A stretch of DNA of 32,000 nucleotides from Paenibacillus sanfengchensis. Lineage in GTDB: Bacteria > Bacillota > Bacilli > Paenibacillales > Paenibacillaceae. Where the stretch lies: positions 340,143-372,142 of the forward strand of contig NZ_JBAGJC010000005.1 of assembly GCF_036864765.1 (NCBI RefSeq). The letters run 5' to 3'. The notes beneath the pieces were generated by a model, which did no database searches, was not told the DNA's origin, and worked only from the letters and a program-made list of their open reading frames with translations. The first letter of the stretch is position 1; every line of letters begins with the position of its first letter. Below are positions 3,422 to 20,906 of the stretch, one piece after another. Made by a program: the position numbers and the translations under genes.

Positions 3422-3465
3422 ATGCTCAAAAACGCTGAATGTACCAACCGTGTACCAACGGATTT

Positions 3466-3514: not shown

Positions 3515-3572
3515 GCTTATCTTACTTGAAATCCTGAAAGCAACTCGCTTCGTTTACGAGCCGCTTCCTTCT

Positions 3573-4110: not shown

Positions 4111-4119
4111 ACGATTAGC

Positions 4120-4339: not shown

Positions 4340-4846
4340 GGCTCCTCCAAATTGATATTTCGGTTATATCTATAAATTCTGTTTATTTTCAGATATTCCC
4401 CTCAAAGTTCAGGAAAGCTTAAAATCGTTCTCCACATGGCAATCAGCAATCATTTTCTCCCATTATATAACATTCGTTCCTTTATTTGCAGAAACATTCA
4501 GAAAAATTCAGAAAAATCCAGGAAATATAAGCAATAATGAGATATATTGTATTATTTGGCATTATATATATTATTTTTAAATTTTATGTTTATATTTAAA
4601 CATTGAGCAAATTGGGCATTAGAACTAAGATTAAAACCGCTACAAAATTCCAATTAAAGGAAGAAGGGAAGACTGTCAAAAAATGATGGATAACGCAAGG
4701 TCGTCATGCTCAGTGTTTTTTTCGCTGTAATTTCCGATGCCATGGAACTCAAAGCAGGTGTGGTTCTTAAATCTGAGGAAAACACGAAATAAAATGCAGT
4801 CACGGATTTTTTTGTCTTAAACACAACGAAAGGATTGTGAGTGTTT

Positions 4847-6031: not shown

Positions 6032-6056
6032 CTAAAAAAGGGAGAGCGAGATCGTT

Positions 6057-6803: not shown

Positions 6804-6836
6804 TTTCCCTAAAAATCAAATAAGGGTGGGAGAAAC

Positions 6837-7496
6837 ATGATGAACAAAATCATCTCTGCGGAAGAAGCGGTTAAGAAGGTGAAAGACGGGGATACGGTGA
6901 TGGTCGGCGGTTTTCTCGCCGGAGGTTATCCGGAAGAGCTGGTGCGCGCGCTGGTCGACACTAATTCCGCCGGCAATCTAACCGTAATTTCCAACGACAC
7001 GGGCACATCGGAACTATCGATCTATGAGCTTGTGAAAAGCGGCCGAGTAAAGCGGATTTTTGCTTCCTACATCGGCGCCAATCCGGAAACAGGAAGACTC
7101 CTGATGACGAAAGAAGCGGATGTGCAGCTCTTCCCGCAAGGCACGCTCGCGGAAAAAATCCGCGCGGGAGGAGCGGGCTTGGGCGGTGTTTTAACCCCTG
7201 TAGGCGTAGGCACCGTTGTCGAGGCAGGTAAACAGAAGCTGGAGATAGACGGACGGGAATATTTGCTGGAGCTACCGCTCAAAGCGGACGTGGCGTTAAT
7301 TCGCGCCCATAAGGGGGATGAAGCGGGGAACCTGGTCATCAACGGCTCTTCACGCAACTTCAATATCATTATGGCAACGGCGGCCGAGTATGTCATTGCA
7401 CAGACGGACGAATACGTAAAGGCAGGGGACATTGATCCCAATCATGTCAACGTCCCCGGAATCTTTGTCGATGCGATCGTAAAGGTGGGAGATTAA
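6837..7496 (+). CDS. ctfA: Acetoacetate/3-oxoacid CoA-transferase subunit A
   Basis: Family I CoA-transferase alpha subunit pattern: ...DGDTVMVGGF.., SNDTG, ..GTLAEKIRAGGAGLGGVLTPVGVGT.., ..ALIRAHKGDEAGNL... The second ATG at 6840 has better SD spacing (GGGTGGGAG). Confidence 0.9.
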   Translation: MMNKIISAEEAVKKVKDGDTVMVGGFLAGGYPEELVRALVDTNSAGNLTVISNDTGTSELSIYELVKSGRVKRIFASYIGANPETGRLLMTKEADVQLFPQGTLAEKIRAGGAGLGGVLTPVGVGTVVEAGKQKLEIDGREYLLELPLKADVALIRAHKGDEAGNLVINGSSRNFNIIMATAAEYVIAQTDEYVKAGDIDPNHVNVPGIFVDAIVKVGD

Positions 7497-7498
7497 GC

Positions 7499-8155
7499 AT
7501 GAATAACCGAGAATTAATCGTTAGAAGAATAGCCCGGGAATTTAAAGACGGCGATATCGTCAACCTTGGAATCGGCCTGCCTACCATGGCGGTGGACTAT
7601 ATCCCCGAAAACGTGCATATTACGCTGCAGGCTGAGAATGGAATTGTCGGCGTAGGTCCCAAAGCGGCTCAGGGAAAGGAAAGACTCGATTGTATCGATG
7701 CTGGCGGAAACTACGTAACTACCGTAAAAGGAGCTTGTTTTATCGACAGTACGCTATCTTTTTCCATTATTCGCGGAGGGCATGTAGACATCACCGTTCT
7801 GGGCGCCCTGGAGGTCGATGAGCAAGGCAACCTGGCAAGCTGGATGATTCCCGGGAAAAAAGTGCCGGGTATGGGCGGGGCCATGGATTTGGTGGTTGGA
7901 GCCAAGCGGGTGATCGTAGCCATGGAGCATCTGACCAAAGACGGAGCGCCGAAAATCCTGAAAACCTGCAAGCTCCCCCTAACCGCCGTAAATGTTGTAA
8001 AGACCATCGTTACCGAAATGGCCGTCATCGATGTGATTCCAGGCAAAGGGCTGCTACTGAAGGAAATCGCTTCGGGTTTGTCGGTGGAAGACGTTCAGAA
8101 GGCAACCGAGGCTAAGCTGATGGTTTCACCGGATTTGAAGGCTATTGCAGTGTAA
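7499..8155 (+). CDS. ctfB: Acetoacetate/3-oxoacid CoA-transferase subunit B
   Basis: Beta-subunit pattern: VNLGIGLPT, LQAENGIVG (ENG motif with the catalytic Glu), IRGGHVDITVLGALEVD..GNLA.W..PGK.VPGMGGAMDLV.GAKRVIV.MEH. The start lies 2 nt after the ctfA stop. Confidence 0.9.
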   Translation: MNNRELIVRRIAREFKDGDIVNLGIGLPTMAVDYIPENVHITLQAENGIVGVGPKAAQGKERLDCIDAGGNYVTTVKGACFIDSTLSFSIIRGGHVDITVLGALEVDEQGNLASWMIPGKKVPGMGGAMDLVVGAKRVIVAMEHLTKDGAPKILKTCKLPLTAVNVVKTIVTEMAVIDVIPGKGLLLKEIASGLSVEDVQKATEAKLMVSPDLKAIAV

Positions 8156-8167
8156 ATCATAGAAGTG

Positions 8168-8215
8168 GAACAAGCCCTCAAGGAAATCAGCTTCCCGAAG
8201 GGGCTTGTTCTTTTT
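8168..8215 (+). terminator. Intrinsic terminator of the thl-adc-ctfAB operon
   Basis: GAACAAGCCC (8168-8177) / GGGCTTGTTC (8201-8210) stem followed by TTTTT (8211-8215). Confidence 0.85.
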
Positions 8216-8300
8216 CGTATTAGTTTGTCGTCACCTTTACCTTGTAAGGATCCGTAATGCCTATCCGTTCATTTGAAGGAAATAGAGGGAATTTATATCA

Positions 8301-9299
8301 CTATGTTCTCCCTACAGATTGATACGAAAGGAAACCCGTGAGGCGCACTGTAGATGGTTTACGAGGTAGCTTTTTCAGCGCTTCCACCAACTTCACGTCT
8401 ACCCGGTCCTCCCGCGTGACGAAATAACGGACGGAGCGGTTTATACTACACCCACTCTTACTCAGCCCAAATACGTCCACTTCCGTATTCGGATCGCCCA
8501 CATACCCATACAACGTCGGGTTATTCCCCGCCAGCCCGATCGGGTCCTGCTGCGTATAAATCCCTTCATGCGGCGAGTAATAGCGGAAGCGGTTGTAGTA
8601 TAGCCCCGTTTCCACGTCCTCGTATTGACCCGGGTATCGGAACGGGCAATCGGATCTCTTGCCACGGAGATAAATTCCGCGGATATCCCCGTAAATGTCC
8701 AATTCGGCGGCCCATACGCGTTCCCCGTGTGCATCATACATCTCTACCGGGGTGCCCAGGTGGTCGGTGATGATACTGTATGTCCCGTTGACCGTGATTT
8801 TGGCGGCCGGCCGGAAGGTTCCGTCTTCAAACACCCAGGTCGTCAGGCTCGCGGGGGCGGGTTCTTGCGCAACAGCGGGTTGAGCTAGCAGGTACTTAAA
8901 TTTTTCTGCCGCTCCTTGAGGTGCAGCTAAAGCAGCAGATTCAGGGTTTCCTTCCTGCTCTCCTGGTTTACTCTCCGCTGCCCACTCATGCAAAATCTGG
9001 TTCCCGTCCCATATATAGCGGTATACTACGCCGTTGAAGCGCTTCTCAATCCGGCGGCCCATGCTGTCGTAGGTGAACACCACTTCCTGTCCGTCCGGGC
9101 GCACCACTTTGCTCATCATGCCGTTGTCGTAATACTCGTAACGCCAGCGAGTTTTGTCCGGGTCCACCTTTTCGATCAGTTGGCCTTCCTCGTCATAGCT
9201 GTACTTCGTTCCTTTGAACTCTAGCAAGCGCCCGCCCGCGCCATATTTCCGGTCCGTGCGCAGGCCGCAACTGTACAGGTTCCCGACATCGTCCGTCAT
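8301..9299 (-). CDS. Orphan Rhs C-terminal cassette (Rhs core end plus an alternative short C-terminal tail); no N-terminal part
   Basis: The 332-aa ORF is about 95% identical, by eye, to the corresponding stretch of the 1914-aa Rhs protein up to ...DPIGLAGNNPTLYGYVGDPN. It then diverges: TEVDVFGL|SKSGCSINRSVRYFVTREDRVDVKLVEALKKLPRKPSTVRLTGFLSYQSVGRT. Rhs-like coding sequence continues upstream of the ATG to about 9356 (DFTLTWIGSSNEFGSLFRM), where an in-frame stop precedes it. Confidence 0.8.
   Translation of the reverse strand: MTDDVGNLYSCGLRTDRKYGAGGRLLEFKGTKYSYDEEGQLIEKVDPDKTRWRYEYYDNGMMSKVVRPDGQEVVFTYDSMGRRIEKRFNGVVYRYIWDGNQILHEWAAESKPGEQEGNPESAALAAPQGAAEKFKYLLAQPAVAQEPAPASLTTWVFEDGTFRPAAKITVNGTYSIITDHLGTPVEMYDAHGERVWAAELDIYGDIRGIYLRGKRSDCPFRYPGQYEDVETGLYYNRFRYYSPHEGIYTQQDPIGLAGNNPTLYGYVGDPNTEVDVFGLSKSGCSINRSVRYFVTREDRVDVKLVEALKKLPRKPSTVRLTGFLSYQSVGRT
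8487..9293. repeat. Direct repeat copy A (orphan rhs) of an approximately 807-bp near-identical segment
   Basis: Aligns without indels to 11252-12058 at a constant offset of 2765 bp at both ends, with only scattered substitutions. Confidence 0.9.
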
Positions 9300-9413
9300 C
9301 CGGAACAGGCTGCCGAACTCGTTGCTCGATCCGATCCAAGTTAGGGTGAAGTCCCTTTTTTATGCCCAGAATTTCTTGTCGTACAAAGAATCAAATTTAT
9401 GAAAAATGCTCAT

Positions 9414-9444
9414 AAAAAAATAGCTGTCGAGACTCCTCGACAGC
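9414..9444 (-). terminator. Intrinsic terminator after the 193-aa immunity-like gene
   Basis: GCTGTCGAG (9423-9431) / CTCGACAGC (9436-9444) hairpin with loop ACTC. On the minus strand it is followed by a U-run (plus A-run 9414-9420). Confidence 0.85.
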
Positions 9445-9461
9445 CTTAACCCTATAATAAC

Positions 9462-10043
9462 CTAACGCTCCGGATCTACTCTAAAATTGTATTGGTCAAT
9501 ACTTTTTGAAAAATCGAAATTTGGTAATGCTTCTCTTTCTTGTAGCTCAAGTAAGTAACCACATTCCGCTGAATATCCCTTATTCGGTTCGCAAAAACCA
9601 ACAATACGAACTCCATAGCATCCATTCTTTAGCTTTATAGCATCGCTTGAGCTTGACCTATTCTCTTGAAAAAAGTCATAATCCATGTAAAAACTGGGAT
9701 CCCAATAAATAATAGATTCTATATCTGACACGACCAACTTTCCGCTTGTAACTGTAAGAGGAAATAACCTTTCTGTTTCGAATATCTTCCATCCCTCCGG
9801 GATAATCTGTTTGTTACTATTGCTATTATTGATATAAATAGTATAGTCAATATCCGGTATTGGATAAATCGGGATTATAACTCCTTGATATATAGCTTCC
9901 TCGCCTACAAGCTCGTGCTCATAAAAATAGGTAACTAAATCTGAGCTTACTATCCCGTTATCCTTAACAAATCTATCTAAGTTAGCAGGGTCAAATATAA
10001 CAATTCCTTGCATATGAAGTGTTAATTGAAGTTTACTTGTCAT
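9462..10043 (-). CDS. Hypothetical protein, candidate orphan immunity protein (AT-rich, no cognate toxin upstream)
   Basis: A 193-195-aa ORF. The ATG at 10043 lies 9 nt after AGGAGG; the track start is the GTG at 10049. It is markedly AT-rich compared with flanking rhs DNA, has no signal peptide or TM segment, and lies between an Rhs scar and the orphan Rhs cassette. No family was recognised. Confidence 0.6.
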   Translation of the reverse strand: MTSKLQLTLHMQGIVIFDPANLDRFVKDNGIVSSDLVTYFYEHELVGEEAIYQGVIIPIYPIPDIDYTIYINNSNSNKQIIPEGWKIFETERLFPLTVTSGKLVVSDIESIIYWDPSFYMDYDFFQENRSSSSDAIKLKNGCYGVRIVGFCEPNKGYSAECGYLLELQEREALPNFDFSKSIDQYNFRVDPER

Positions 10044-10116
10044 GGGCACTTACCTCCTAGCATTTTCACTTGCTTCTTATTCCATTTTAAGGATTTATCG
10101 AGAGCTCCCTTTATAG

Positions 10117-10278
10117 TTATATTTTTTGCCAGAATTTCACCAGTATCGCGTATCTTAAGATAGCCTCTTTGCGGTTGCCGAGTTCATCGTACGTGCTGGC
10201 GACCCAATAATAGTCCCACCATTTCTTGACCAGGCTGCCGAACTCCAGCCGAACGCCGTTCCACAAGACTGCAAACAT
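10117..10278 (-). pseudogene. Rhs-repeat scar (53-codon remnant)
   Basis: Minus-strand translation is MFAVLWNGVRLEFGSLVKKWWDYYWVASTYDELGNRKEAILRYAILVKFWQKI-stop. The central part parallels LEYDATGRLIKEWRDRYWIASTYDELGNRKEI of the main Rhs protein, and the DNA at 10166-10262 resembles 12481-12580. It is below the 60-aa track threshold. Confidence 0.7.
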
Positions 10279-10328
10279 ATTTTCTTATAAATACCAATCC
10301 ACCGAATATTGTACAAGTAATTTCGCTT

Positions 10329-10389
10329 AAAACACAAAAACACATGTAAAGAAAAGAGCTATACATTTTCTTTACATGTGTTGTGTTTT
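10329..10389. terminator. Long near-perfect hairpin downstream of the immunity gene (bidirectional terminator-like)
   Basis: AAAACACAAAAACACATGTAAAGAAAA (10329-10355) pairs with TTTTCTTTACATGTGTTGTGTTTT (10366-10389). The flanks are A/T-rich on both sides. Confidence 0.75.
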
Positions 10390-10472
10390 AACTAGCTAAA
10401 TCAAGATTGAAAAATACAAAATTATTTGAGCAACACTTTTTGTTAAATTTAAAAAATATACTTTGACCCTAG

Positions 10473-10820
10473 TTATTCAGGATAATCATCATATACCCCA
10501 TTTGAAGTAAAATATTTAATTGTAAATTTTATTATGTTATCTTCCAAATCTATTTCTGGATCAAAAATTTTTAAATTATTTTGTCGCAATTTTAGTTTAT
10601 AGGATTGAATCTCAGTTACAATATCATCTAATAAACTAATTGAAAAATCATCGACACATCCCCAATATTCTCTTGTAAGTTCGATTAATTCTTCAGGAAG
10701 ATTATTTTTTAAGATGTCTCCCTGAAAATGATATTCCATATCGAATTCTTGAATTTCAATATAGGCTAGATCTTTATTTAATTTCTCAGAAAAAATGTAA
10801 TCATATTTATAAGCGAGCAT
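10473..10820 (-). CDS. Putative cognate immunity protein of the Rhs C-terminal toxin
   Basis: A 115-aa acidic ORF starts 2 nt after the rhs stop and shares the AT-rich composition of the toxin-encoding 3' end of rhs. No family was recognised. Confidence 0.7.
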   Translation of the reverse strand: MLAYKYDYIFSEKLNKDLAYIEIQEFDMEYHFQGDILKNNLPEELIELTREYWGCVDDFSISLLDDIVTEIQSYKLKLRQNNLKIFDPEIDLEDNIIKFTIKYFTSNGVYDDYPE

Positions 10821-10822
10821 TT

Positions 10823-13800
10823 TTAACCTCCTTTACAAGAGAATTTCCCTGAGAGATTTTGTAAATTACTCTCTGTAAAACCTACAAAACCTTGTGGGTG
10901 TGTTAATCGAGCATGATTTTCACCCAGTCTTCCTTTTTTAGATGGATCATGTATAACATCAAATCCAGATTCTCTAATTTTTTCAACAGATGACCCTTTA
11001 ATTGAAGTTAGTTCTACTTGTCGTTCAGGAAACGCACTATTCCAAATTTCCTGTGCATGTTCTGCATTATTCGCCCTTATTAATGAAATTCCATTCGGAT
11101 TCAATCTTCCTTTCGATGCTGCTTCAATTTCACGTTGATTTGGTAAGAAAGCTTGTATTCCTTTCTCTTGAGAAATTCTAAAAACCCTTGTACCATCTGG
11201 TAACGGTGAGCCAGGTATTAATTCTAGTAGTCCAAACGTATCGATAGAACTATTCGGATCACCCACATACCCATACAACGTCGGGTTATTCCCCGCCAGC
11301 CCGATCGGGTCCTGCTGCGTATACATTCCTTCATGCGACGAGTAGTAGCGGAAGCGGTTGTAGTACAGCCCCGTTTCCACGTCCTCGTATTGACCCGGGT
11401 ATCGGAACGGGCAATCGGATCTCTTGCCCCGCAGATAAATCCCGCGGATATCCCCGTAAATATCCAATTCGGCGGCCCAGACGCGTTCCCCTTGCTCATC
11501 ATACATCTCTACCGGGGTGCCCAGGTGGTCGGTGATGATACTGTATGTCCCGTTGGCCGTGATTTTGGCGGCCGGGCGGAAGGTTCCGTCTTCAAACACC
11601 CAGGTCGTCAGGCTCGCGGGGTCGGGTTCTTGCGCAACAGTGGGTTGAGCTAGCAGGTACTTAAATTTTTCTGCCGCTCCTTGAGGTGCAGCTAAAGCAG
11701 CAGATTCAGGGTTTCCTTCCTGCTCTCCTGGTTTACTCTCCGCTGCCCACTCATGCAAAATCTGGTTCCCGTCCCATATATAGCAGTATACTACGCCTTT
11801 GAAGCGCTTCTCAATCCGGCGGCCCAAGCTGTCGTACGTGAACACCACTTCCTGGCCGTCCGGCCGCACGACTTTGCTCATCATGCCGTTGGCGTAATAC
11901 TCGTAACGCCAGCGAGTTTTGTCCGGGTCCACCTTTTCGATCAGTTGACCCTCCTCGTCATAGCTGTACTTCGTTCCTTCGAACTCCAGCAAGCGCCCGC
12001 CCGCGCCATATTTCCGGTCCGTGCGCAGGCCGCAGCTGTATAGGTTCCCGACATCGTCGACCATGCGGAAGATTTTATTAAACTCATTGCTGGCCCCAAT
12101 CAGGGTGCCGAAATCGTCATAGTTATAGCTGATTTGTTTGCCGGTCAGTTCGTTCGTCAGTGATTTCAGCCTGTAGTTGATATCCCAGGCATACCTTCTC
12201 TTCCGGCTTTCCCGGCCGCCGATGTTTACGCTATGCCGCTCCGGTCTGCCGGCGATGTCGTATTGCCATCGGCTCACTACGCCGCCGGGGAGCAACCTTT
12301 CGATCTCTTGCCCCAGCTTGTTGTAAGACATCTGCGCCGTCCATGGCATGGCCGTTCCCGCCGAGGCCGTTCCGGGATCAGCCTGCTCTTGTCCCTGCCC
12401 TTTTTGCTCGGCCTGCAACTGGCTGATCTGGCCCAGCACATCCCGGTCCATCCTGATTTGTGCACCCAGGCTGCTGTTTATTTCCTTTCGGTTACCGAGT
12501 TCATCATACGTGCTGGCGATCCAATAACGGTCCCGCCATTCCTTGATCAGGCGACCGGTCGCATCATACTCCAGCTTGATCGCAGCAAACGGATTGGAGG
12601 TCTCCAACAAAACTCCGATCCGGTTGTACCTGAACGTTTCGCTCAAACCGTCGCTATAGTCTGTCTGAGTCACACGGCCCATCTCATCATAACTGAAAGC
12701 CGACCACCGGCCGCCGGGACGCTCCACTCTCTCCAGCATCCCACCCGGGCTGCGCACATATTGTCTGACAATGCCGTCAAACCCGGTTTCCCGCACAATT
12801 TCGCCGTTCGCGTCACGTTCAAGCACATAGCGCTCCCCGTGCTCATTCACGACCGCAGTCAGCTCTTCCTCGTTGTTGTAGACCAGCTCAACCCGCTTGC
12901 CTTTGGCTTCGCGCCAGGTCAACTGGCCGAGCGGAGTATACCCGAAAGTGACGCGCAGCTTGGCATCCTCCGCGGCGATCACTTCCTCATACGCATTGTA
13001 CCGCAACTTGACCACATTGCCGTCCGGCAGCTCCGCGCGAACCACGCGGCCCAGCGCGTCATATTCCAGGCTTTGCTTTGCGCCGAGAGGGTTCGTCTCC
13101 TGAACCATCTCGCCCCGGTTATTATAGCGCCACTCGGCACTCGATCCGTCCGCAAGCGTCATCCGGGTTAAATTGCAGTGGTCGTCATAAGCCAGGAGCG
13201 TCGCCGCCCCCGACGGGTTACGCACCTCGCGAATCCGGTGGTGTTCATCATACGCGAACGTCGCAACCGTCCCTTCGGGGCCGATGATTCTGTATAATCT
13301 CCCCCGTTCGTCATACACCCACGACTGACTACCGCCTTCCGGGTCGGTCACCTGCAGCAACTGCCCCTGCTCGCTGTACTTATACTGCCAACTGCCGCCG
13401 TCCGGCTGGATCGTCCGCACCAATTGCCCGAGCTCGTCGTACACATACTCCGTCTTCCGGCCGTCCGGGTCCGTTTCGCTGAGCAGGTCGGCCGTATCGC
13501 TGTACGTATATTCGGTGCGGCCGCCCAGCGGGTTGACGATCGCCGTACAATAATAGTCCGGGGTATATTCATACCTTGTCGTATGCCCCTGGCTGTTCGT
13601 CACCTCATTGTACCCGTCAAAATAGGCGATTCGCCCTTCCAACAACCCATCTTCGCCCCACGTATGCACACAGCGCGCGCCGGTGGTAGGGCCGTCATAA
13701 CGCCAGTAAAAACGGTATCCGTTGCGGTCCTTCTTCCCAATCAGCAGATGCTGGTCATAGGTTTGATACGTGGTCTGTCCCAGCGCGTCCGTAATGGCGA

Positions 13801-16567
13801 CCAGATCGCCCGCTTCGTTATACCGGTACTGCACCAGCACCTCGCGCTGCTCACTCAGCCGGCTGTCCGGGTTTGTGCGGTACACATGAGTGACCTTCGT
13901 GATCCTCCCCGCAGCATCCGTATCGACCTCCAGCACACGTCCCACACTGTCTATGACCTGCTGCAAAAAGCCCCGCTCATCATAATGCAGCTCAATCCGC
14001 TGACCAAGTTCGTTTTCCACCCGCACCAACTGGTACGGGACGGAGGTATCCTCCTCCGCATCGTCAACCGCCACCGGATGCCGTGTTGCCCCCGCCGACA
14101 GCGTCTCCGCCTTTGTCCTTGTCTCCTCTCCCGATGCCGAGCCTGCAGAGAACGATGCGGTAGCCTCCGAGCCGAAACTAACCCCGGGCACGGGCGCAAA
14201 ATAATACGTCAACCGCCGCTCATGCTCATACAGCGCGTAGTTGTGCCCCAGGCGGCGCAGTGTCAGCCGCTCGGCGCGGTTAAACGTCTCCACGCGGCCA
14301 CGGTGCAGCAGTTCGAACGCCGCCGCCCGGCCATCGCCGAGCAGCACCCCGATGCCCTCCTTCAGCACGGCGAGGCGCATATCGAGGGCATGATGCACAC
14401 CGTGACCGAGCCAGCCGCGGTACCCGCTGTCGCTGATCCACCGGCGCTCCCAGACCAAGGGCAGGGGGCCGGGGAACTCGAAGTCCGTGGCCTGGCTTAT
14501 CATCCGTCCGGTAATTAAATCCACAGGCTCAAAGCCCCATTTACAGAACTTCTCACTTAACCCTTCTGTACATGTGAAATTTTTCAGCACCTTGTGATTC
14601 AAAGCGGTCAGCGCTTTGTGTAAACCGGATTTTTCCAAGGCCGCCTGCACCAGCTTGCCCGTTCGCTCCGCCAGCTCGTCCTGCATTTTCGCCAGTTTTT
14701 CCGCGACCTGCTTCTGAATGACATCGGTCTGGCCCACGACCTTTTTCGCGGCCGTAAGCACCTTGTCCATTTGGCTTTTGCCCAGCTTCAGGACCTTCTC
14801 CCCGCCAAACTTCACTACCGCCTTGCCGATCTTGCTCGCGGCCTTCCCCGCCAGACGGGCGGCGCCAAAGGCGTCCCCGACCCCGGGGATCATGCATACG
14901 AGCGACAGACCCGCGCCTACAACATCCCCGCGAGCCAGGCTGATCCCCGCGTTGAGCACATCGAACACCGCGCCGACGCCGGGCAGCATGCCCAGTACGT
15001 CCAGACCGGTCTGGATCTTGTCCCAGAACCCTTCTTTTTCCTTATCGATCTTCGCCTGCTCGGCTTCCGGATTGGTCAGCTTCTCAAACGGCTGCCGATC
15101 CCGGCCTTCGGCCACAATGACCTGACCGGCGATTTCCACATTGTCGTTTATGATCATGCTGCCGCCCTTGCCGACGACGATGATTTCCTCTTCCGCGATC
15201 GCCTGAAACTGCTTGAACCCGCTAAAATCGATTTTCTCCGGTGCCATCCAGACGATATCCTGTTCACTGTGCAGCTCGATCCCCGTGCCCTCATGAATCG
15301 ACAAGTACAGCGAGCCCTCTTTGGCCGTAAAAGAAATGTCCTGCAGTCCCAGTACAAAATCCTTGCCATAGCTGGTAGTAAACGATTTTACCGTGGAATC
15401 GGCCATTTTCTGACCGGCTTTGGCGGACGCTTCTCCGCCGGCGGACAAAGGCGTGCGCACCGAATTGATCAGCATCGCGTCGTCCTCGTCTTTGCCCGGG
15501 AAATACAGCTTGACCCGCGACCCCACCTGCGGCATCGTATGCAGCAAATGGCTGAACGGCGAAGAATAAGGGAACCAGACGGCTTCCGCTTCACTCTGCT
15601 CCGGATCGATATCCAGATGTACTTTGGCCATATTGGGAGCAACACCGATAACCTTGCCTTCTAACGCCAGCCCGACCAAATACGGATTGTACCGCTGGTT
15701 TTGCCGGATCCCTTCGGGCAGCGCACACAAATAATCAAACTCGAGAATGCCTTTACGGAGTTCCGCCTCCAGCCCCATGACCGTAAACCACACGCCGCCA
15801 AGCTCCACCTGATCACCCAACTGAAGCAGTTGCTCCAGCCTGACCACACAACGGGTAAAAGAGTTCTCCCGCAGTCTCTCGTTCGGCGCCGCGATCGCGG
15901 TCAGGAAGGCATCCACCTCCCGTCCGAGCCGATAGGCCGTCCCTTCCGGCAGCTTCAACCGGCCGGATCGGGCGGGAGCTCCGATCCAGATCCGCGCCTC
16001 ATCCCCGGAGACGTCCGGCGTCAACACCGCCCCCGCGTGGGAAGCGACCCGCTGCAGAAACTCCCAATCCGTCTCTTCGTACTGAAGCAGCAGCTTCCCG
16101 ATTGGCCGCGACGTATCGAACGCATTTTCCTGAAGGCGGTGGCTGTAAGGAGATAACACTTCGTCGATCACTTCGCGGTAACGCATATTTAGCTGCTGAA
16201 ACGAACGGCTTTTCCGTTCGATGTCCAGTTGATAGGTTGGCGAAATCACGACCAGTTCGATGTGCTGATTGTTTTGCACCTCATGCAGCTCAAGCTGATG
16301 AAGCTGTCCCAGAAACAGCGGATAGTCCGGGAGACCGCCCCGGCCGTGTCCCCATAATCCGACGCGGTCGCCACTGCTTGCCCGCTCGACGATTTCTTCG
16401 CCGTTATGCTCCGGCAGTAATCCCCGCAGCATTAACCGCGCGTGATTGCCCGGATGGCGGATGATCTTGATCCCCTCCAGGCGAAGCCGGCCGTACGGCC
16501 ATGTTAGATATAGATCCCCAAGCGTAAGGCTCACGGGCTCACTTCTTTGTACTTTTTGCTCCAGCAT
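10823..16567 (-). CDS. VgrG/gp5-like spike domain fused to an Rhs/YD-repeat polymorphic toxin
   Basis: A 1914-aa ORF starting after the AAAGGAGGAG SD. The layout by residue is as follows. Aa 1-490 are paralogous to the 501-aa spike-like ORF (LLQYEETDWEFLQRVASH; VWFPYSS...MPQVGSRVKLYFPGKDEDDA). Aa about 520-580 form a Gly-zipper segment (GMLPGVGAVFDVLNAG...CMIPGVGDAFGAA). Aa about 680-730 read DLITGRMISQATDFEFPGPLPLVWERRW (Rhs-associated N-terminal plug-type motif). Many YD repeats follow (Y.YD..G.L). The core end is DPIGLAGNNPTLYGYVGDPNSSIDTFGL, followed by a 134-aa AT-rich C-terminal domain (10826-11227). Confidence 0.92.
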   Translation of the reverse strand: MLEQKVQRSEPVSLTLGDLYLTWPYGRLRLEGIKIIRHPGNHARLMLRGLLPEHNGEEIVERASSGDRVGLWGHGRGGLPDYPLFLGQLHQLELHEVQNNQHIELVVISPTYQLDIERKSRSFQQLNMRYREVIDEVLSPYSHRLQENAFDTSRPIGKLLLQYEETDWEFLQRVASHAGAVLTPDVSGDEARIWIGAPARSGRLKLPEGTAYRLGREVDAFLTAIAAPNERLRENSFTRCVVRLEQLLQLGDQVELGGVWFTVMGLEAELRKGILEFDYLCALPEGIRQNQRYNPYLVGLALEGKVIGVAPNMAKVHLDIDPEQSEAEAVWFPYSSPFSHLLHTMPQVGSRVKLYFPGKDEDDAMLINSVRTPLSAGGEASAKAGQKMADSTVKSFTTSYGKDFVLGLQDISFTAKEGSLYLSIHEGTGIELHSEQDIVWMAPEKIDFSGFKQFQAIAEEEIIVVGKGGSMIINDNVEIAGQVIVAEGRDRQPFEKLTNPEAEQAKIDKEKEGFWDKIQTGLDVLGMLPGVGAVFDVLNAGISLARGDVVGAGLSLVCMIPGVGDAFGAARLAGKAASKIGKAVVKFGGEKVLKLGKSQMDKVLTAAKKVVGQTDVIQKQVAEKLAKMQDELAERTGKLVQAALEKSGLHKALTALNHKVLKNFTCTEGLSEKFCKWGFEPVDLITGRMISQATDFEFPGPLPLVWERRWISDSGYRGWLGHGVHHALDMRLAVLKEGIGVLLGDGRAAAFELLHRGRVETFNRAERLTLRRLGHNYALYEHERRLTYYFAPVPGVSFGSEATASFSAGSASGEETRTKAETLSAGATRHPVAVDDAEEDTSVPYQLVRVENELGQRIELHYDERGFLQQVIDSVGRVLEVDTDAAGRITKVTHVYRTNPDSRLSEQREVLVQYRYNEAGDLVAITDALGQTTYQTYDQHLLIGKKDRNGYRFYWRYDGPTTGARCVHTWGEDGLLEGRIAYFDGYNEVTNSQGHTTRYEYTPDYYCTAIVNPLGGRTEYTYSDTADLLSETDPDGRKTEYVYDELGQLVRTIQPDGGSWQYKYSEQGQLLQVTDPEGGSQSWVYDERGRLYRIIGPEGTVATFAYDEHHRIREVRNPSGAATLLAYDDHCNLTRMTLADGSSAEWRYNNRGEMVQETNPLGAKQSLEYDALGRVVRAELPDGNVVKLRYNAYEEVIAAEDAKLRVTFGYTPLGQLTWREAKGKRVELVYNNEEELTAVVNEHGERYVLERDANGEIVRETGFDGIVRQYVRSPGGMLERVERPGGRWSAFSYDEMGRVTQTDYSDGLSETFRYNRIGVLLETSNPFAAIKLEYDATGRLIKEWRDRYWIASTYDELGNRKEINSSLGAQIRMDRDVLGQISQLQAEQKGQGQEQADPGTASAGTAMPWTAQMSYNKLGQEIERLLPGGVVSRWQYDIAGRPERHSVNIGGRESRKRRYAWDINYRLKSLTNELTGKQISYNYDDFGTLIGASNEFNKIFRMVDDVGNLYSCGLRTDRKYGAGGRLLEFEGTKYSYDEEGQLIEKVDPDKTRWRYEYYANGMMSKVVRPDGQEVVFTYDSLGRRIEKRFKGVVYCYIWDGNQILHEWAAESKPGEQEGNPESAALAAPQGAAEKFKYLLAQPTVAQEPDPASLTTWVFEDGTFRPAAKITANGTYSIITDHLGTPVEMYDEQGERVWAAELDIYGDIRGIYLRGKRSDCPFRYPGQYEDVETGLYYNRFRYYSSHEGMYTQQDPIGLAGNNPTLYGYVGDPNSSIDTFGLLELIPGSPLPDGTRVFRISQEKGIQAFLPNQREIEAASKGRLNPNGISLIRANNAEHAQEIWNSAFPERQVELTSIKGSSVEKIRESGFDVIHDPSKKGRLGENHARLTHPQGFVGFTESNLQNLSGKFSCKGG
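11252..12058. repeat. Direct repeat copy B (inside the main rhs gene)
   Basis: Partner of 8487-9293 (see above). It covers the last Rhs-core repeats up to the GDPN codons that precede the toxin domain. Confidence 0.9.
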
Positions 16568-16585: not shown

Positions 16586-16969
16586 TTATTTCTGGCCGTC
16601 GTCTTCCACATAAATGATGCCGTTCTCATGGTGTGCGCAAGTGACATAAGAGCAACTTAGCAGCGCAGGCTTGTCCTCAACCATTAAATCCGGCTTGCCG
16701 TTCACCCACTCCATATGCACATCGGGCTCGCACGGCTTGTCCCTCGCTTCGCATACCCCGAAGGTGGAAATATTGTCCTCGATCTTGCTGTCCCCCACAT
16801 TCATCAGCGGTTGACCTTTTATGTACATGCCGTGACTCGTCGGCAGATTCAGCATGTTCGGATGACTGCCGCACGCACAGCGCAGCATCGCCCCGCGCAC
16901 CACGTAGCTGAACTCCTCGGTGGCCGACTCCTGCACAACGGTGCGTGTTCCTTTTGCAGATGCCATCAT
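16586..16969 (-). CDS. DUF4280-type (PAAR-like) protein
   Basis: A 127-aa protein: VVRGAMLRCACGSHPNMLNLPTSHGMYIKGQPLMNVGDSKIEDNISTFGVCEARDKPCEPDVHMEWVNGKPDLMVEDKPALLSCSYVTCAHHENGIIYVEDDGQ. It matches the remembered DUF4280 layout (GA.L.C..G..P..L.V...., FG.C....C.P....W......, C..GG.I.....GQ). The SD is GAGGGGGA. Confidence 0.8.
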   Translation of the reverse strand: MMASAKGTRTVVQESATEEFSYVVRGAMLRCACGSHPNMLNLPTSHGMYIKGQPLMNVGDSKIEDNISTFGVCEARDKPCEPDVHMEWVNGKPDLMVEDKPALLSCSYVTCAHHENGIIYVEDDGQK

Positions 16970-16983
16970 TTAGTCCCCCTCAC

Positions 16984-17502
16984 TTAAAATTTCGATCCAC
17001 CGTCCACTTCCACGGGGGTGAAGTGCAGCCCCGAATAAGCCCGGCGCAGCAGACTTTCGGCCACGTCCAGATGGACGATGACCTGCCCTTCCGCGCACAA
17101 GATCCGCTCGCTCCCCAGCCGTCTTCCGTCCAACACGCATGCGGTCACATGACCGAACCGGTCGCGTCGGCTTCGATCCAATAACACTTCCCGCTCCCTC
17201 GGTTCCAAAAACCAGTAAAGCTCCTGCCGCTTGGCCTCTTTGGCCGTCAAAATAACGGAGGTCCAGTTCAGACCGGCTTCATACAATTCCAACAGTTGCT
17301 TCATCCGGTTTGACACCATACGGCGCGGCTTCTCGACATAATCGAGGAAACGAACCTCCGCATCTTCCCGCACATACAAACTGTTGCTCGTCTGTCCGCC
17401 GCGCTCGCCGCCCGTACCGCTTAAACCATCCCGCCGGCCGCCGATCACGAGCAGCGGTTTGCTCCGTTTATCCTGCTCCAGCAAAAAATAGTGCACCGCC
17501 AT
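16984..17502 (-). CDS. Hypothetical protein (172 aa), operon member of unknown family
   Basis: The ORF starts 8 nt after the upstream stop (ATG at 17502 or GTG at 17496, after AAAGGGGG). It has no TM segment or signal peptide and begins M(A)VHYFLLEQD. Its position between the pentapeptide and PAAR-like genes suggests an adaptor, chaperone or immunity role (inference only). Confidence 0.6.
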   Translation of the reverse strand: MAVHYFLLEQDKRSKPLLVIGGRRDGLSGTGGERGGQTSNSLYVREDAEVRFLDYVEKPRRMVSNRMKQLLELYEAGLNWTSVILTAKEAKRQELYWFLEPREREVLLDRSRRDRFGHVTACVLDGRRLGSERILCAEGQVIVHLDVAESLLRRAYSGLHFTPVEVDGGSKF

Positions 17503-17510: not shown

Positions 17511-18632
17511 CTATTCACCCGCCGGTACGGGAACGCCGCTGTCGTCCTCTTCCATCCAGACGACGCTGCGTTTCTGTTCTTCGCTAAGCCGCCAATGGAC
17601 GGCATCCCGCTTCAGGATCGCGGCTCCGGCCATATGCGCTCCCCGGAAATCGGCCCCGGCCAGATCGGCGTACAGCAGGTTGGCGCCTTCGAGATTAGCG
17701 CCGTTAAAGCGAACGCCGCCAAGCCCCAGCACCATCCCCTCGTGGATAAACCGTTCGCCGCCCACAGCTTCCGTCAGCCGGGCGCCGCGCAGATCGCTGC
17801 CGCTAAAATCGGCATCGTACAGCAGGCTCTGACTCAGGTCGGCGCCGGTCAGGATGCCGCGGCTAAAATCGGTGCCGATGCAGACGCTCCGATTTAGACG
17901 AGCCCCGCTAAAATCGCTCCGCTCACAATGGCTGTAGCGCAAATCGAGGTGCTCATAATTCCCTCCGCTCAAGTTCAGGCCCCGAAAATCGCTGTTCATG
18001 TAACCATTCGGCCATTTTTGCTCCAGCCACCGTTTCAGGGCCGCCGCATCCTTGTCCGCCACGTCTTCCATCCAGATTGGTTCGCTGAAATCCTTGTATT
18101 CCCCGGTACGGAATCGGAGCACACCGGCCCGCTCCACCTGCCGGAACTCCGGCAGGGCGATCAGCTGCGGCACGAGCCGGCGCACCCATTCTCTGACATA
18201 CTGATGCAAAACCGTGATCTCCCGCAGCAAGATCGCTTCCTGCTCCATCTCGGGCACCGTGCCGGACAGCTTTGTGCCGAGTTCCCGCTTAAAAGAATGC
18301 AGCAGCGGATAAAGCCACGACAGCTCAATCATCTCCACGCATTCGTTCCGGTCGACATACCAGCGATCATCGTAAGCTTCCAGGCTGTACACCAGCCTTC
18401 CCTGCAGCAACCAGGAACGTAAATAAGAAAAATGAACAAATGCGATTCCGGCCTTCGTCCCGTCTTCCTGCTGCTTGCGGATGCGTAAGAAGAGCCTGCG
18501 GAACGCCGCGATCAGCTCGCCGTTATGCGCCTCCATCCTCCCGGCCCGCCAAAACTTGTCGGCTTCTTGCAGCAGCGCATCCCGCAGCCGGGTAACCTCT
18601 CGTTCTACCGAATCCGTCAAGGTCAACCCCAT
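17511..18632 (-). CDS. Pentapeptide-repeat protein with an approximately 210-aa N-terminal domain of unknown family
   Basis: The C-terminal half contains runs of A(D/N)LXX-type pentapeptides: FRGLNLSGGNYEHLDLRYSHCERSDFSGARLNRSVCIGTDFSRGILTGADLSQSLLYDADFSGSDLRGARL and FNGANLEGANLLYADLAGADFRGAHMAGA. The SD is AGGAGGAGGG. Confidence 0.85.
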   Translation of the reverse strand: MGLTLTDSVEREVTRLRDALLQEADKFWRAGRMEAHNGELIAAFRRLFLRIRKQQEDGTKAGIAFVHFSYLRSWLLQGRLVYSLEAYDDRWYVDRNECVEMIELSWLYPLLHSFKRELGTKLSGTVPEMEQEAILLREITVLHQYVREWVRRLVPQLIALPEFRQVERAGVLRFRTGEYKDFSEPIWMEDVADKDAAALKRWLEQKWPNGYMNSDFRGLNLSGGNYEHLDLRYSHCERSDFSGARLNRSVCIGTDFSRGILTGADLSQSLLYDADFSGSDLRGARLTEAVGGERFIHEGMVLGLGGVRFNGANLEGANLLYADLAGADFRGAHMAGAAILKRDAVHWRLSEEQKRSVVWMEEDDSGVPVPAGE

Positions 18633-18646: not shown

Positions 18647-20152
18647 CTAGTTGTTCCGCACCTGGTTTCCTTTGAGTGCGACATCGTTCTCGATCACAAG
18701 CGAACTGTCCTTACAGCTCATTTCCACCTTTTCGCTTGCCGCCAATGTGATATTCTTCGATTGCAGAATCACATTTTCCGTCGCGGTTACCTTGATATCC
18801 TTGCTGCTGGTCAGCGTGATGCCGTTCTCGTCCTCCAGCAAAATCGATACGCCGTTCCCCGAAATCATAATGTAGTCCGGCGCCAGTACGATCATTTTGC
18901 CGTTCTTTGTTTTGAGCGTTTTGATTTCCGGGTCCTGCATCGGATCGCCGCCGGAACCAGCCGAACCGCCGGAGCCGCCACCACTCGCACCTGCACTTGC
19001 GCCCGAGCCCGCTGCCGCGCCGGCCTCTCCCCCGGCTGTCCCGCTTCCCGGGGTGCCGCCCGCTTTCGCCACCGAGCTGGTGGCAAAGGCGTCCTTCTCC
19101 TCATGCGTCGGAAAGTATATCCGCACCTGGTCCCCCTGCTCCGGCATGAAGTACCAGCCCGCATTGTCCGCGGACGCATAAATCGTCGAGTACGGCAGCC
19201 AGCAGGCGCCTCCTTCATCCTGTGACGCGTCCATGTTCAGATGCACCTTGACCGTGTCCTTGCTGACGGCCAGCACCTTCCCCTGGACCGAAGCTCCGAC
19301 GATGGTGCTGTTGTACTGTTTGGGAACGACCAGGCCGCCTTCTCTGGCGAGCGTATATCTGCGCTTGAATTCCCCTTGCTCCAGCATCATCACGACCTCG
19401 CTGACAAGCAGCTTGCTTCCGGCAAATTCCACCTCATGCCCGAGATCCAGCACTTGGGGCGATTCCACCTCGTAAAATACGAAATCATGCTGCGAGACCC
19501 CGGGAATACGGGTGCGCAGCGCCTGCTGATACAAATCCATCCGCTTTTTGACGCGGTAATTGTGCACGGTCAGCTTGCCTTTGCTGCCGAGCCGGGGCAA
19601 CCCGATATAGCATAATATCCGCTCATCCATAGCGGCCGGGACCACCCCTGTGTAAAAATGCGAGGCCAGCCGCTTAAGCAGTTGCCAATCGCTTTCCCGA
19701 TACTGCAAAATCATGCTTTCCAGCGAGGAGCCGTTAGAGGCATAATCGATGAAATCGGCCTGAGGATAAGCGTCGACCACCTGATTCATCACGGACCGGT
19801 AAGCGAGGCCGATCTGCTGGAAAGAACGGTCCACCGGCTTGACGTCCAGCTTGTAGGTGGACGATACCGCCCGGGCGGAAATGGAGTACACCCCGTTCAC
19901 CATTTGAACTTCCACATCCAGGATCATGCCGTGGAACAACGTCACCCGCTTGCCTTCCCCGTCGACTTCTTTTACCACGATCTCCGTCTGCGCGTCGGCC
20001 ATCTGCACATAACTGTCCTTGCAGCTTTCCGGAACGATCCCTTTAAAAGTCAGCCTTACATGTTCATTCATCCGCTTCTCGATCTTCAGTTCCTGAAGCT
20101 GCTTGAGCTCAAACGGTTCGATCACAATGTATGAATTCTGCGTTCCTTCCAT
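18647..20152 (-). CDS. VgrG/gpD-gp5-like spike protein (no cargo domain)
   Basis: A 501-aa protein with a hub motif MILQYRESDWQLLKRLASHF. It has an OB-fold block GASVQGKVLAVSKDTVKVHLNMD....CWLPYSTIYA...GWYFMPEQGDQVRIYFPTHEEKDAF. A 42-aa Gly/Ala/Ser linker spans aa 362-403. The C-terminus has a short repetitive beta-strand pattern (ITLTSSKDIKVTATENVILQSKNITLAASEKVEMSCKDSSLVIEND) like a spike beta-helix. Confidence 0.85.
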   Translation of the reverse strand: MEGTQNSYIVIEPFELKQLQELKIEKRMNEHVRLTFKGIVPESCKDSYVQMADAQTEIVVKEVDGEGKRVTLFHGMILDVEVQMVNGVYSISARAVSSTYKLDVKPVDRSFQQIGLAYRSVMNQVVDAYPQADFIDYASNGSSLESMILQYRESDWQLLKRLASHFYTGVVPAAMDERILCYIGLPRLGSKGKLTVHNYRVKKRMDLYQQALRTRIPGVSQHDFVFYEVESPQVLDLGHEVEFAGSKLLVSEVVMMLEQGEFKRRYTLAREGGLVVPKQYNSTIVGASVQGKVLAVSKDTVKVHLNMDASQDEGGACWLPYSTIYASADNAGWYFMPEQGDQVRIYFPTHEEKDAFATSSVAKAGGTPGSGTAGGEAGAAAGSGASAGASGGGSGGSAGSGGDPMQDPEIKTLKTKNGKMIVLAPDYIMISGNGVSILLEDENGITLTSSKDIKVTATENVILQSKNITLAASEKVEMSCKDSSLVIENDVALKGNQVRNN

Positions 20153-20155: not shown

Positions 20156-20827
20156 TTAGCCCTCCCCTTCGCCTTCCTGTCCGCTCACCTGCAAGGAAGC
20201 CATGATGCCGTGAGCGATCGGACGCCATAACTTCATCTCTTTCTCCATGCAATTCACCCCGAAGAAGATCCCTTTTTGTTCCCAGGCCATAAAAAAAGTC
20301 AAGTTATAGATATTGCCATCCATCGCCGGAGACACCAGCTCATAATAACCGGCCAATTTCTTGGGTGGCGGCAATTCTTCCGCCGTATTGGCCACGCCCA
20401 GTTCCAGCACCCCGTCCGACAGCCAGGAAGCATTGGGCTGCATGCGTTTCAGCATCTTGAGCAGTTCCTGCTGATACACCTCCAGCTCATCGTCAAACAG
20501 CCGATTGTCCGTGGGGTTGACCGTAACGTTCACCGTCAGGGAATCATTGGTGTAGATCAGCTTGGGCCTCCGGTCGGACGGGTATTTGATCCGGGCATAG
20601 GCCTCCGGCATTTCGGTAAAAGACGCCGGCAAGCGCAAGCTCACCCGTTCCGGAATCACCTCCAATTCTGCAAATTCCAGCGTTTCCTCTTCAAGTTCCA
20701 GCTCTCCGGCCCGGACCGCTTGGGTCACTTCCGGAATGGAAAGCCGATGCTCTCTAAGCTGTTCCCGCTCCTGCCGATCCTCCTCCCGAATCAATTTGAG
20801 GAACTGTTCATCCATAAATGGGGTCAT
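20156..20827 (-). CDS. Hypothetical protein (223 aa), first gene of the spike/Rhs operon
   Basis: The start is placed at the ATG at 20827 (MTPFMDEQF...), 5 nt after GGAAGAGGTG; the track start at 20866 is a TTG without an SD. It has an acidic N-terminal helix-like region and a Glu/Gly tail. Its stop lies 3 nt before the next start. No family was recognised. Confidence 0.65.
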   Translation of the reverse strand: MTPFMDEQFLKLIREEDRQEREQLREHRLSIPEVTQAVRAGELELEEETLEFAELEVIPERVSLRLPASFTEMPEAYARIKYPSDRRPKLIYTNDSLTVNVTVNPTDNRLFDDELEVYQQELLKMLKRMQPNASWLSDGVLELGVANTAEELPPPKKLAGYYELVSPAMDGNIYNLTFFMAWEQKGIFFGVNCMEKEMKLWRPIAHGIMASLQVSGQEGEGEG

Positions 20828-20906
20828 GCAAGCACCTCTTCCGCCTATGTACTCTTTTTCGGCCAAGCCGACTTCGCCTAGCCTCTTGCCTAATTCCGCC
20901 AGCTAC

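Follow-up and report, generated by a model that had tools for sequence, protein, structure and literature searches.

A VgrG-type spike fused to a hydrophobic segment, an Rhs cage and a toxin in the Gram-positive bacterium Paenibacillus sanfengchensis

A single polypeptide of 1914 amino acids (aa), encoded in a 32,000-nucleotide stretch of the Paenibacillus sanfengchensis genome (contig NZ_JBAGJC010000005.1, positions 340,143 to 372,142; this whole stretch is hereafter the window), was found to unite four parts: a spike of the VgrG type, a Gly-rich hydrophobic segment, a complete Rhs cage and a C-terminal toxin domain. Its gene is one uninterrupted open reading frame (ORF) of ~5.7 kb on the minus strand, with a Shine-Dalgarno sequence (GGAGG) preceding the ATG, and its features lie far beyond what chance would yield. 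The initial annotation of the window had proposed this architecture, which is borne out here and recurs across many genomes. We consider it rather likely that the gene encodes an effector-carrying ('evolved') VgrG of a spike-based polymorphic-toxin system specific to Gram-positive Bacillota.

Architecture of the fusion protein

The fusion ORF comprises the following features (window coordinates):

10823..16567, minus strand: whole fusion ORF, 1914 aa (spike, hydrophobic segment, helical linker, DUF6531 plug, Rhs cage, autoprotease motif, toxin)
15098..16567, minus strand: VgrG/Afp8-type spike, aa 1-490, with a gp27-like hub, an OB fold and a short beta-helix (AlphaFold2 and Foldseek)
14843..15007, minus strand: putative Gly-zipper hydrophobic hairpin, aa 521-575, with two (M)(L/I)PGVG motifs around an RGD turn
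14531..14842, minus strand: Lys-rich linker, aa 576-679, predicted to be helical (AlphaFold2 long helices at low confidence; composition)
14315..14530, minus strand: DUF6531, the N-terminal plug of the Rhs cage, aa 680-751, beginning FE/PVDLITGR (Pfam, E 1.4e-21)
11312..14314, minus strand: YD-repeat shell of the Rhs cage, aa 752-1752 (RHS_repeat, E 1e-70; phmmer against solved cores)
11228..11311, minus strand: DPIGL-x18-DPNSSIDTFGL, Rhs C-terminal aspartyl autoprotease motif and predicted release site, aa 1753-1780
10826..11227, minus strand: polymorphic toxin domain of an unnamed family, aa 1781-1914 (GC content 0.36)

The first 490 residues, which the initial annotation had called spike-like, were recognized as such both by sequence and by structure. 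Pfam Phage_GPD matched aa 104-181 with 35-37 bits against a gathering cutoff of 30.1, and an AlphaFold2 model built from 62 sequences placed aa 10-490, at a predicted local distance difference test (pLDDT) score of ~90, in the layout of hub, OB fold and beta-helix, followed by low-confidence helices at aa 491-680. A Foldseek search of aa 1-490 against the PDB returned only central spikes, namely those of contractile injection systems (CIS), type VI secretion systems (T6SS), Afp8 and Pvc8, with E-values of 1e-25 to 1e-19 over 550-650 alignment columns; the matches included AlgoCIS (7aef_q, 1e-25), the T6SS VgrG proteins 8gra_G (7e-23) and 4mtk_A (2e-21), Afp8 (6rbk_C, 2e-21), Pvc8 (6j0m_A, 4e-21) and an Anabaena CIS (7b5h). 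As modeled, this region has the fold of a VgrG/TssI-type central spike, the class to which T6SS VgrG, Afp8/Pvc8 and phage gp27-gp5 belong. The curated NCBIfam models of T6SS VgrG (TIGR03361, TIGR01646 and VgrG_rel) scored far below their cutoffs (26.7 bits against 186, and 21.1 against 122), and so, for all its spike fold, the protein does not appear to be a sequence-level member of T6SS VgrG.

The absence of a signal peptide and of LXG or WXG elements, likewise claimed beforehand, was upheld. The peak Kyte-Doolittle hydropathy over 19 residues (KD19) was 0.34 within residues 1-40, indicating that the fusion carries no signal peptide, and no Pfam match at E<=0.1 to an LXG or WXG domain, the mark of type VII secretion system (T7SS) substrates, was obtained in the fusion protein, whose N-terminus is the spike hub. 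PAAR and prePAAR domains had no Pfam match in the fusion protein either, a PAAR-like DUF4280 protein being encoded by a separate gene.

Downstream of the spike, aa 521-575 constitute the hydrophobic maximum of the entire protein (KD19 1.69). The Gly-rich segment had been placed at aa 520-580 (14828-15010), correctly, and both of its PGVG repeats are present (MLPGVGAVF, aa 527-535, and MIPGVGDAF, aa 559-567). The pattern [ILMV]PxxG..GD..[ILMV]PxxG is kept in 22 related spike-toxin ORFs, with and without Rhs, and a hydrophobic peak with a KD19 of at least 1.4 follows the spike in 38 of the 49 relatives of 700 aa or more, where it is nearly always the protein-wide maximum; distant relatives have a clear transmembrane (TM) helix at the equivalent position (KD19 2.2-3.1). 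Thus, the order of spike, hydrophobic segment and toxin is a design of the family. These relatives lend comparative support to the earlier idea of the Gly-zipper as a membrane element, more so than this protein's own segment, to which we return below. A second suggestion, that the segment is the pre-toxin domain PT-TG (PF14449), was rejected, with no Pfam match for aa 481-700 at E<=10, nor for the full protein, nor in 62 relatives (E<=0.001); VgrG is named among the partners of PT-TG in the accessible part of a 2026 paper.

The Rhs part was recognized throughout its length, and the YD repeats, the core end and the 134-aa tail all lie where they had been placed. Pfam gave ten RHS-repeat matches (E 1e-70) plus RHS, the NCBIfam model Rhs_assc_core matched aa 1715-1780 with 59.4 bits against a cutoff of 32.5, and phmmer aligned this part to solved T6SS Rhs cores (E 1e-63), including a continuous match of aa 845-1780 to residues 957-1879 of 8qja_A. 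With ~1100 aa, the region of aa 680-1780 is of sufficient length for a closed YD-repeat cage with an N-terminal plug. At the core end, DPIGL (aa 1753) and DTFGL (aa 1776-1780) precede the variable tail; this is the C-terminal Rhs core with a DPxGL-x18-DPxx...GL aspartyl autoprotease motif, and cleavage is predicted there. Cleavage at the other end is a different matter. T6SS RhsA is cut N-terminally before the Pro at the start of the plug, by a mechanism that is unresolved (PMC8765631), and the fusion has FE/PVDLITGR at the position where RhsA is cut (slash), its PVDLITGR starting at aa 681 within DUF6531, in line with the earlier placement of DLITGR at aa ~680-730. The positions of the TseI glutamates, +7 and +8, are occupied here by G and R. 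Since the catalytic residues of RhsA are unresolved and TseI-type glutamates are absent, N-terminal cleavage is not predictable from the sequence.

Several observations set the tail apart from the cage that precedes it. Its GC content is 0.36, compared to 0.58 of the Rhs core, and identity to the closest orthologue, that of Paenibacillus dendritiformis, is ~85% through aa 1780 and 13% thereafter, breaking exactly at the end of the Rhs core. A search of 1.8 billion representative proteins found 70 homologues of the tail, most of which, including every long carrier, match at their C-terminus. In the 40 members that were scanned, the toxin domain is borne by Rhs, PAAR, prePAAR and PT-HINT proteins, among others, and it is covered by no Pfam family. 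Its nearly invariant residues include R17, E33, R85, H105, R107 and H110, with an H-x-R-x-x-H pattern.

Downstream of the toxin lie two low-GC genes, the operon terminator and a second piece of Rhs:

10473..10820, minus strand: candidate immunity protein, 115 aa, GC content 0.25, 2 nt 3' of the toxin and preceded by GGAGG
9462..10049, minus strand: 195-aa gene, low GC content (0.355), last of the operon, with a Shine-Dalgarno sequence; possible second or orphan immunity gene
9422..9445, minus strand: intrinsic-terminator-like hairpin with a 10-bp stem and a T run, directly 3' of the last operon gene
8301..9305, minus strand: orphan Rhs C-terminal fragment with an alternative short tail (Pfam RHS matches)

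The 115-aa protein matched no family and had no homologue in the 77 related loci (L001-L077, described below), as expected for a polymorphic toxin-immunity pair, and it is a candidate for the cognate immunity protein. The 195-aa product had no Pfam family match and a single weak homologue (24% identity), encoded downstream of an Rhs gene in one related locus (L008). The hairpin is the strongest such site of the region, where site counts as a whole are not above chance. Beyond it, and without a Shine-Dalgarno sequence, the orphan fragment is 95.6% identical in DNA (8486-9305) to codons 1500-1772 of the fusion (273 codons) and probably represents a silent cassette for toxin replacement by recombination; together, the orphan copy, the low-GC tail and the identity break make up the classic Rhs toxin-replacement layout.

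Relatives of the fusion and comparison with known systems

A scan for the spike domain, using one genome per species, yielded 492 relatives, all of them in Bacillota, of which 77 loci were kept. The closest are those of P. dendritiformis, with 86% identity across aa 1-680, and of P. massiliensis subsp. panacisoli, with 82%. Full-length, collinear ORFs of spike, DUF6531 and Rhs, 1809-2538 aa long, occur in at least 16 loci (L002-L011, L016-L018, L021, L059 and L076), their hosts being Paenibacillus, Fredinandcohnia, Lysinibacillus, Brevibacillus and Acetatifactor, and a further locus, L080 of Lysinibacillus sphaericus, encodes an 1835-aa spike::Rhs fusion with an AHH nuclease tail. In other relatives the N-terminal domain carries different toxin tails, among them Ntox30, EndoU, TNT, deaminase, WHH/HNH, colicin-DNase, Endonuclease_NS and Tox-HDC, in ORFs of 900-1050 aa. 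Judging from these sequences, the spike domain acts as a trafficking module for polymorphic toxins.

This recurrence bears on whether the ORF is an artefact, either a misassembled join or a decaying remnant. The orthologue in P. dendritiformis G25-126 (L001) is collinear with the fusion and has a single in-frame TAG (7261-7263) where the window has AAG, at codon 465, a change that may mark a pseudogene, distinguish this strain or stem from a sequencing error; this stop and the nearby orphan Rhs fragment would suit such a reading. Against it, the collinear architecture is intact in the other genomes listed, and the ORF itself is uninterrupted, well preceded by a Shine-Dalgarno sequence and set in an operon with tight spacing. 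Because the spike::Rhs architecture recurs, the ORF is not a misassembly, and the possibility that two genes had been joined by an assembly or sequencing error at ~15000-15100 was not supported; an artefact or a dead gene is thus very improbable.

Fusions of VgrG to Rhs are not novel as such. A 2024 preprint, in its accessible part, reports 107 of them and describes the Advenella mimigardefordensis protein as a spike trimer that bears three Rhs cores and undergoes cleavage into a VgrG part and an Rhs part (10.1101/2024.02.26.582050). That megaspike (8qja) resembles the fusion in being one polypeptide of VgrG, Rhs and toxin with an immunity gene downstream, and the Rhs parts of the two align continuously. 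It differs in its Gram-negative T6SS host and in its spike, which has no sequence match to that of the fusion, and the accessible part of the preprint mentions no hydrophobic segment between spike and cage (10.1101/2024.02.26.582050). The Paenibacillus operon, unlike that of Advenella, resides in a monoderm host and includes, besides a further VgrG of the plain kind, a DUF4280 tip and a DUF1795-like gene. Since only the Rhs part matches 8qja, the fusion described here probably arose independently. Its architecture is that of a VgrG::Rhs 'megaspike' from a monoderm, which bears a hydrophobic segment internally and has a DUF1795-like protein as its partner.

The initial annotation implied a Gram-negative T6SS frame, with the protein as a specialized VgrG. 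Its domain logic is indeed that of the Gram-negative VgrG-Rhs fusions, and its Rhs core is closest to T6SS Rhs cores. However, all relatives of the spike and of the gene cassette around it are Bacillota, the close ones being Paenibacillus and other members of this phylum, which contradicts the frame on taxonomic grounds. The low scores of the curated VgrG models and the lack of a spike match to 8qja also speak against it. TssB, TssC, TssM and ClpV are absent from the window, and no member of the canonical T6SS core set (TssB/C sheath, Hcp, TssE-G and TssK baseplate, TssJLM, ClpV) was found there or within 10 kb in the 77 related loci. We therefore regard a canonical T6SS origin as scarcely tenable.

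A closer parallel in design is provided by the class I prePAAR-TMD-Rhs effectors with Eag chaperones, such as Pseudomonas protegens RhsA (PMC8765631). These share with the fusion the order of a spike-binding module, a hydrophobic Gly-rich segment (a putative TM segment here), an Rhs cage and a toxin, as well as the C-terminal aspartyl autoprotease motif and, apparently, a DUF1795-superfamily gene in the operon; they differ in that the N-terminal module here is a whole VgrG rather than prePAAR-PAAR, and in that the candidate chaperone matches only DcrB-type DUF1795 members. The spikes of extracellular contractile injection systems (eCIS), Afp8/Pvc8 and AlgoCIS Alg8, are the best structural matches to aa 1-490. 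They are encoded within sheath-tube-baseplate operons and are not toxin-fused (Zhang et al. 2012, PMC3482391), whereas no such operon is linked here: neither the window nor the 77 loci contain a spike in an operon with sheath, tube, baseplate and tail-measure or terminator genes, as in Afp and PVC.

Among Gram-positive toxins, the comparison is with WapA. This Rhs/YD toxin of Bacillus subtilis combines, as here, an Rhs cage, a polymorphic C-terminal toxin and an immunity gene, and has a Sec signal peptide and cell-wall-binding repeats. The fusion, in contrast, has neither a Sec signal nor wall-binding repeats and carries a spike.

The operon, the linked cluster and the route of export

The fusion gene is part of a minus-strand operon with tight gene spacing (2-18 nt), in the order DUF1795-like gene (236 aa), 501-aa VgrG, pentapeptide-repeat gene, 172-aa gene, DUF4280 gene and fusion, followed by the 115-aa and 195-aa low-GC genes. 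The genes upstream of the fusion are:

20156..20866, minus strand: DUF1795/DcrB-like protein, 236 aa from TTG; operon gene 1, candidate Eag-type chaperone
18647..20152, minus strand: core VgrG-like spike, 501 aa, without an effector extension (Pfam Phage_base_V; weaker Phage_GPD and DUF2345)
17511..18632, minus strand: pentapeptide-repeat protein, 373 aa, with an N-terminal domain of ~200 aa without assignment (Pfam Pentapeptide, E 5.6e-22; 67 loci)
16984..17502, minus strand: conserved 172-aa protein, kept in 67 loci
16586..16969, minus strand: DUF4280 PAAR-like tip protein, 127 aa (Pfam DUF4280, E 2.3e-24, full length)

Together, the six genes that run from DUF1795-like to spike-toxin make up a cassette that recurs in the same order in ~65 of the 77 loci, in Bacilli, Clostridia and Negativicutes, and its flanks are common neither to the window and L001 nor to the window and L002. 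Its first gene, whose true start is probably the ATG at 20827 (MTPFMDEQ...), holds this place in 65 loci. When a profile built from 38 orthologues was run against solved structures, it matched DcrB (13cz_A, E 5.5e-5) and DUF1795 (6e8a_A, E 1.5e-4) over nearly the full domain, and two of the 38 matched Pfam DcrB weakly. The DUF1795 superfamily includes the Eag chaperones, which bind the TM domains of T6SS effectors, and by this analogy the product of gene 1 may be a chaperone for the hydrophobic segment of the fusion.

The 501-aa VgrG is collinear with aa 1-490 of the fusion and 29% identical to it (E 7e-59). In 66 of 69 cases the upstream VgrG of a related cassette was closer to this paralogue than to the fusion, and the effector-carrying downstream VgrG was variable, indicating that the core VgrG is a conserved lineage. 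At aa 365-405 it has a Gly/Ser/Ala low-complexity insert, which matches the position of a low-confidence loop (aa 373-386) in the fusion spike. The DUF4280 gene stands directly upstream of the effector VgrG in 70 loci. The tip is itself toxin-fused in some cassettes (L082, 17200-18624; L078, 17295-18242), one of these being an Endonuclease_NS fusion with a YezG-like immunity gene downstream, so that the tip and the second VgrG are alternative carriers of toxins. For the 172-aa protein, whose AlphaFold2 model was of moderate confidence (pLDDT 67), the best fold match was weak, to the Myxococcus immunity protein MXAN_0049 (6a4c, E 0.043); it also had a weak Pfam match to Imm11, and a profile search of solved structures gave nothing. 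A PHROGs scan of nine window proteins or segments, covering the spike and toxin parts of the fusion, all five cassette genes upstream of it and both genes downstream, returned nothing useful.

The association of Firmicute Phage_GPD proteins with DUF4280 (PAAR_H2) was already seen in a 2021 survey of PAAR proteins, the accessible part of which found no eCIS or T6SS genes nearby and speculated about an unknown phage-like system (PMC8651086). The gene neighborhood is the same as ours; that part of the survey notes the adjacency alone and contains nothing on how the cassette genes are ordered, on fusions of spike to toxin, on a hydrophobic segment or DUF1795-like gene, or on the cluster described next.

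In other genomes the cassette adjoins a conserved cluster, which lies outside the window's own content. Four genes directly upstream of the cassette and on the same strand, c8 (~430 aa), c7 (~235 aa), c6 (~880 aa) and c5 (~261 aa), were each found in 28-31 of the 77 loci (~40%). The c6 protein has ATPase motifs of the actin/Hsp70 type, and a profile search of structures gave weak matches to the Hsp70 nucleotide-binding domain and nothing else. It has at least 1975 relatives at E<=1e-10, the best 120 listed being 58-99% identical to the query and drawn from several genera; across genera the identity of this Hsp70-like ATPase is 58-91%. The extended cluster is ordered Ser/Thr kinase, 722-aa protein, 141-aa protein, DnaJ, membrane FHA protein, second FHA protein, PP2C, PP2C/TM/TPR protein, c8, c7, c6 and c5, and is alike in P. 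thiaminolyticus, Brevibacillus, L. sphaericus and Aneurinibacillus. It occupies the following sites:

L061: 1-9265
L078, L079, L080 and L082: ~1-13500 each
L052: 1100-19600

A literature search of incomplete coverage turned up no account of the cassette or of the kinase/FHA/PP2C/DnaJ/Hsp70-like cluster. The proteins of this cluster in L080 and L082 bear public names that seem erroneous or devoid of content: 'transcriptional regulator' for the 722-aa protein and 'membrane-associated protease 1' for the 141-aa one. The names of c8 ('normocyte-binding protein'), c6 ('molecular chaperone') and a homologue of the 172-aa cassette protein ('serine protease') are no more informative. In Acetivibrio alkalicellulosi (L081, 6462-19259), c8, c7, c6 and c5 occur without an adjacent VgrG cassette and are followed by a transposase, a kinase and a protein of 697 aa distantly related to the 722-aa one; this is a variant that has been rearranged or reduced.

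Several species were sampled with two cassette loci, some from different strains, and in these c5-c8 stood alongside one locus only, a pattern that resembles, by analogy, the arrangement of a T6SS main cluster and auxiliary vgrG clusters. Lacking any homologue of c5-c8, the window carries a cassette of the auxiliary kind. We tentatively propose, as a plausible reading that falls short of probable, that monoderm Bacillota possess an undescribed spike-based apparatus for protein delivery, with the cassette as one of its auxiliary effector modules and with a main cluster that runs from the kinase to c5 and on through the DUF1795-like, VgrG, pentapeptide-repeat, 172-aa and DUF4280 genes. It would be a counterpart of the T6SS with a threonine-phosphorylation switch and a J-domain/Hsp70-type motor in place of ClpV, and with VgrG::TMD::Rhs megaspikes among its projectiles.

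A number of observations weigh against the favored reading of the fusion as an evolved VgrG of a Bacillota-specific spike-based system, exported with the help of the linked cluster, or against parts of it. The window contains no export apparatus, and tblastn detected no c5-c8 homologue in it; no sheath, baseplate or membrane channel was recognized in the main cluster. Profiles of c5, c7 and c8 matched no solved structure, and that of the 722-aa family gave a spurious leucine-rich repeat (LRR) match only (the 141-aa protein was not part of this search), while the 141-aa protein had a match to Pfam TssD/Hcp that is below threshold (E 0.0034, 17.7 bits against a cutoff of 25.8). The gene-1 profile matches DcrB-type DUF1795 members and not the Eag chaperones themselves, and the fusion's own hydrophobic segment, which contains D and R, is borderline as a TM helix. 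Three Rhs cages on one spike may clash, and the in-frame TAG in the closest orthologue indicates that such genes can decay.

The spike-toxin could instead be the cargo of a phage-tail-like particle (an eCIS, a tailocin or a defective prophage tail) encoded elsewhere, whose spike it would replace or join. PBSX-like tail elements are present in many Bacillota. The best fold matches being eCIS spikes (AlgoCIS, Anabaena CIS, Afp8 and Pvc8), the NCBI label 'contractile injection system protein, VgrG/Pvc8 family' and the lack of an apparatus in the window all speak for this. Yet in 50,697 phage records tblastn detected nothing homologous to the spike domain, nor any match to the 141-aa or 722-aa protein; none of the 77 loci has a cluster of sheath, tube or baseplate genes within 10 kb, as the 2021 survey, in its accessible part, also saw no eCIS or T6SS genes near the Firmicute pairs (PMC8651086); and the cassette adjoins a non-phage cluster with an Hsp70-like ATPase, for whose gene no plasmid carriage was found. 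We regard this alternative as unlikely.

It also appears improbable that no dedicated export machine exists and that the protein is released by lysis or a holin-type route, its spike, tip and hydrophobic module then acting in the manner of a bacteriocin, by trimerizing, binding the envelope and inserting into the membrane. The fusion has no signal peptide, the cassette of the window stands alone, and the proteins of the cassette and of c5-c8 have no TM segments (the regulators excepted), leaving no channel evident. However, the conservation of the six-gene cassette and of the ATPase cluster across genera implies an assembled machine, the kinase/FHA/PP2C module is typical of post-translationally triggered secretion systems, and no lysis genes are linked to the cassette.

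The remainder of the window holds the following features:

398-2872, minus strand: 824-aa ORF
2924-3140: T-box leader (122 bits), preceding the 824-aa gene
3302-3375, plus strand: tRNA gene
4841-8155: operon encoding a thiolase, an acetoacetate decarboxylase and two CoA transferase subunits (acetoacetate/acetone pathway), ending beside the orphan Rhs fragment

The T-box leader suggests that the product of the 824-aa gene is probably an aminoacyl-tRNA synthetase. A plus-strand ORF of 939 aa (95-2914), which is Arg-rich, is an antisense artefact of this real gene.

Proposed mechanism and significance

Under the favored reading of an evolved VgrG of a spike-based toxin system, aa 1-490, which have the fold of a VgrG-type spike, would presumably trimerize, and the spike may assemble alone or with the upstream core VgrG; DUF4280 would cap its tip, as is the known role of its family. 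The Rhs cage is joined to the spike via the predicted helical tether. By analogy with the prePAAR-TMD-Rhs effectors and their Eag chaperones, the Gly-zipper hairpin at the start of this tether might be shielded in the producing cell by the DUF1795-like product, and might later insert into the target membrane and help the toxin cross. Within the cage, the aspartyl autoprotease motif (DPIGL...DTFGL) would free the 134-aa toxin, from which the 115-aa downstream protein would protect sibling cells. New toxins could be gained by recombination at the end of the Rhs core, to which the orphan fragment, the low GC content of the tail and the break in identity to the closest orthologue point. Export may depend on the conserved kinase-to-c5 cluster that adjoins such cassettes in other genomes.

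Toxin delivery by spikes and PAAR tips is regarded as a mechanism of the Gram-negative T6SS or of phage-tail-like particles, and Gram-positive toxins are assigned to Sec, the T7SS and other routes. Here, a complete set of spike, tip, chaperone candidate and Rhs toxin is found in a monoderm with no recognizable sheath or tube, and the linked conserved cluster offers a concrete candidate for the machine by which a Gram-positive cell would export and fire such a spike. On a modest reading, the design of TM segment, DUF1795 chaperone and Rhs cage appears to have been assembled independently on a VgrG scaffold; the analysis also adds an unnamed toxin domain family and a number of misannotated genes for curation. 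If the linked cluster is indeed the export machine, it would constitute a novel secretion system to which many polymorphic toxins are attached and whose regulatory switch is open to testing.

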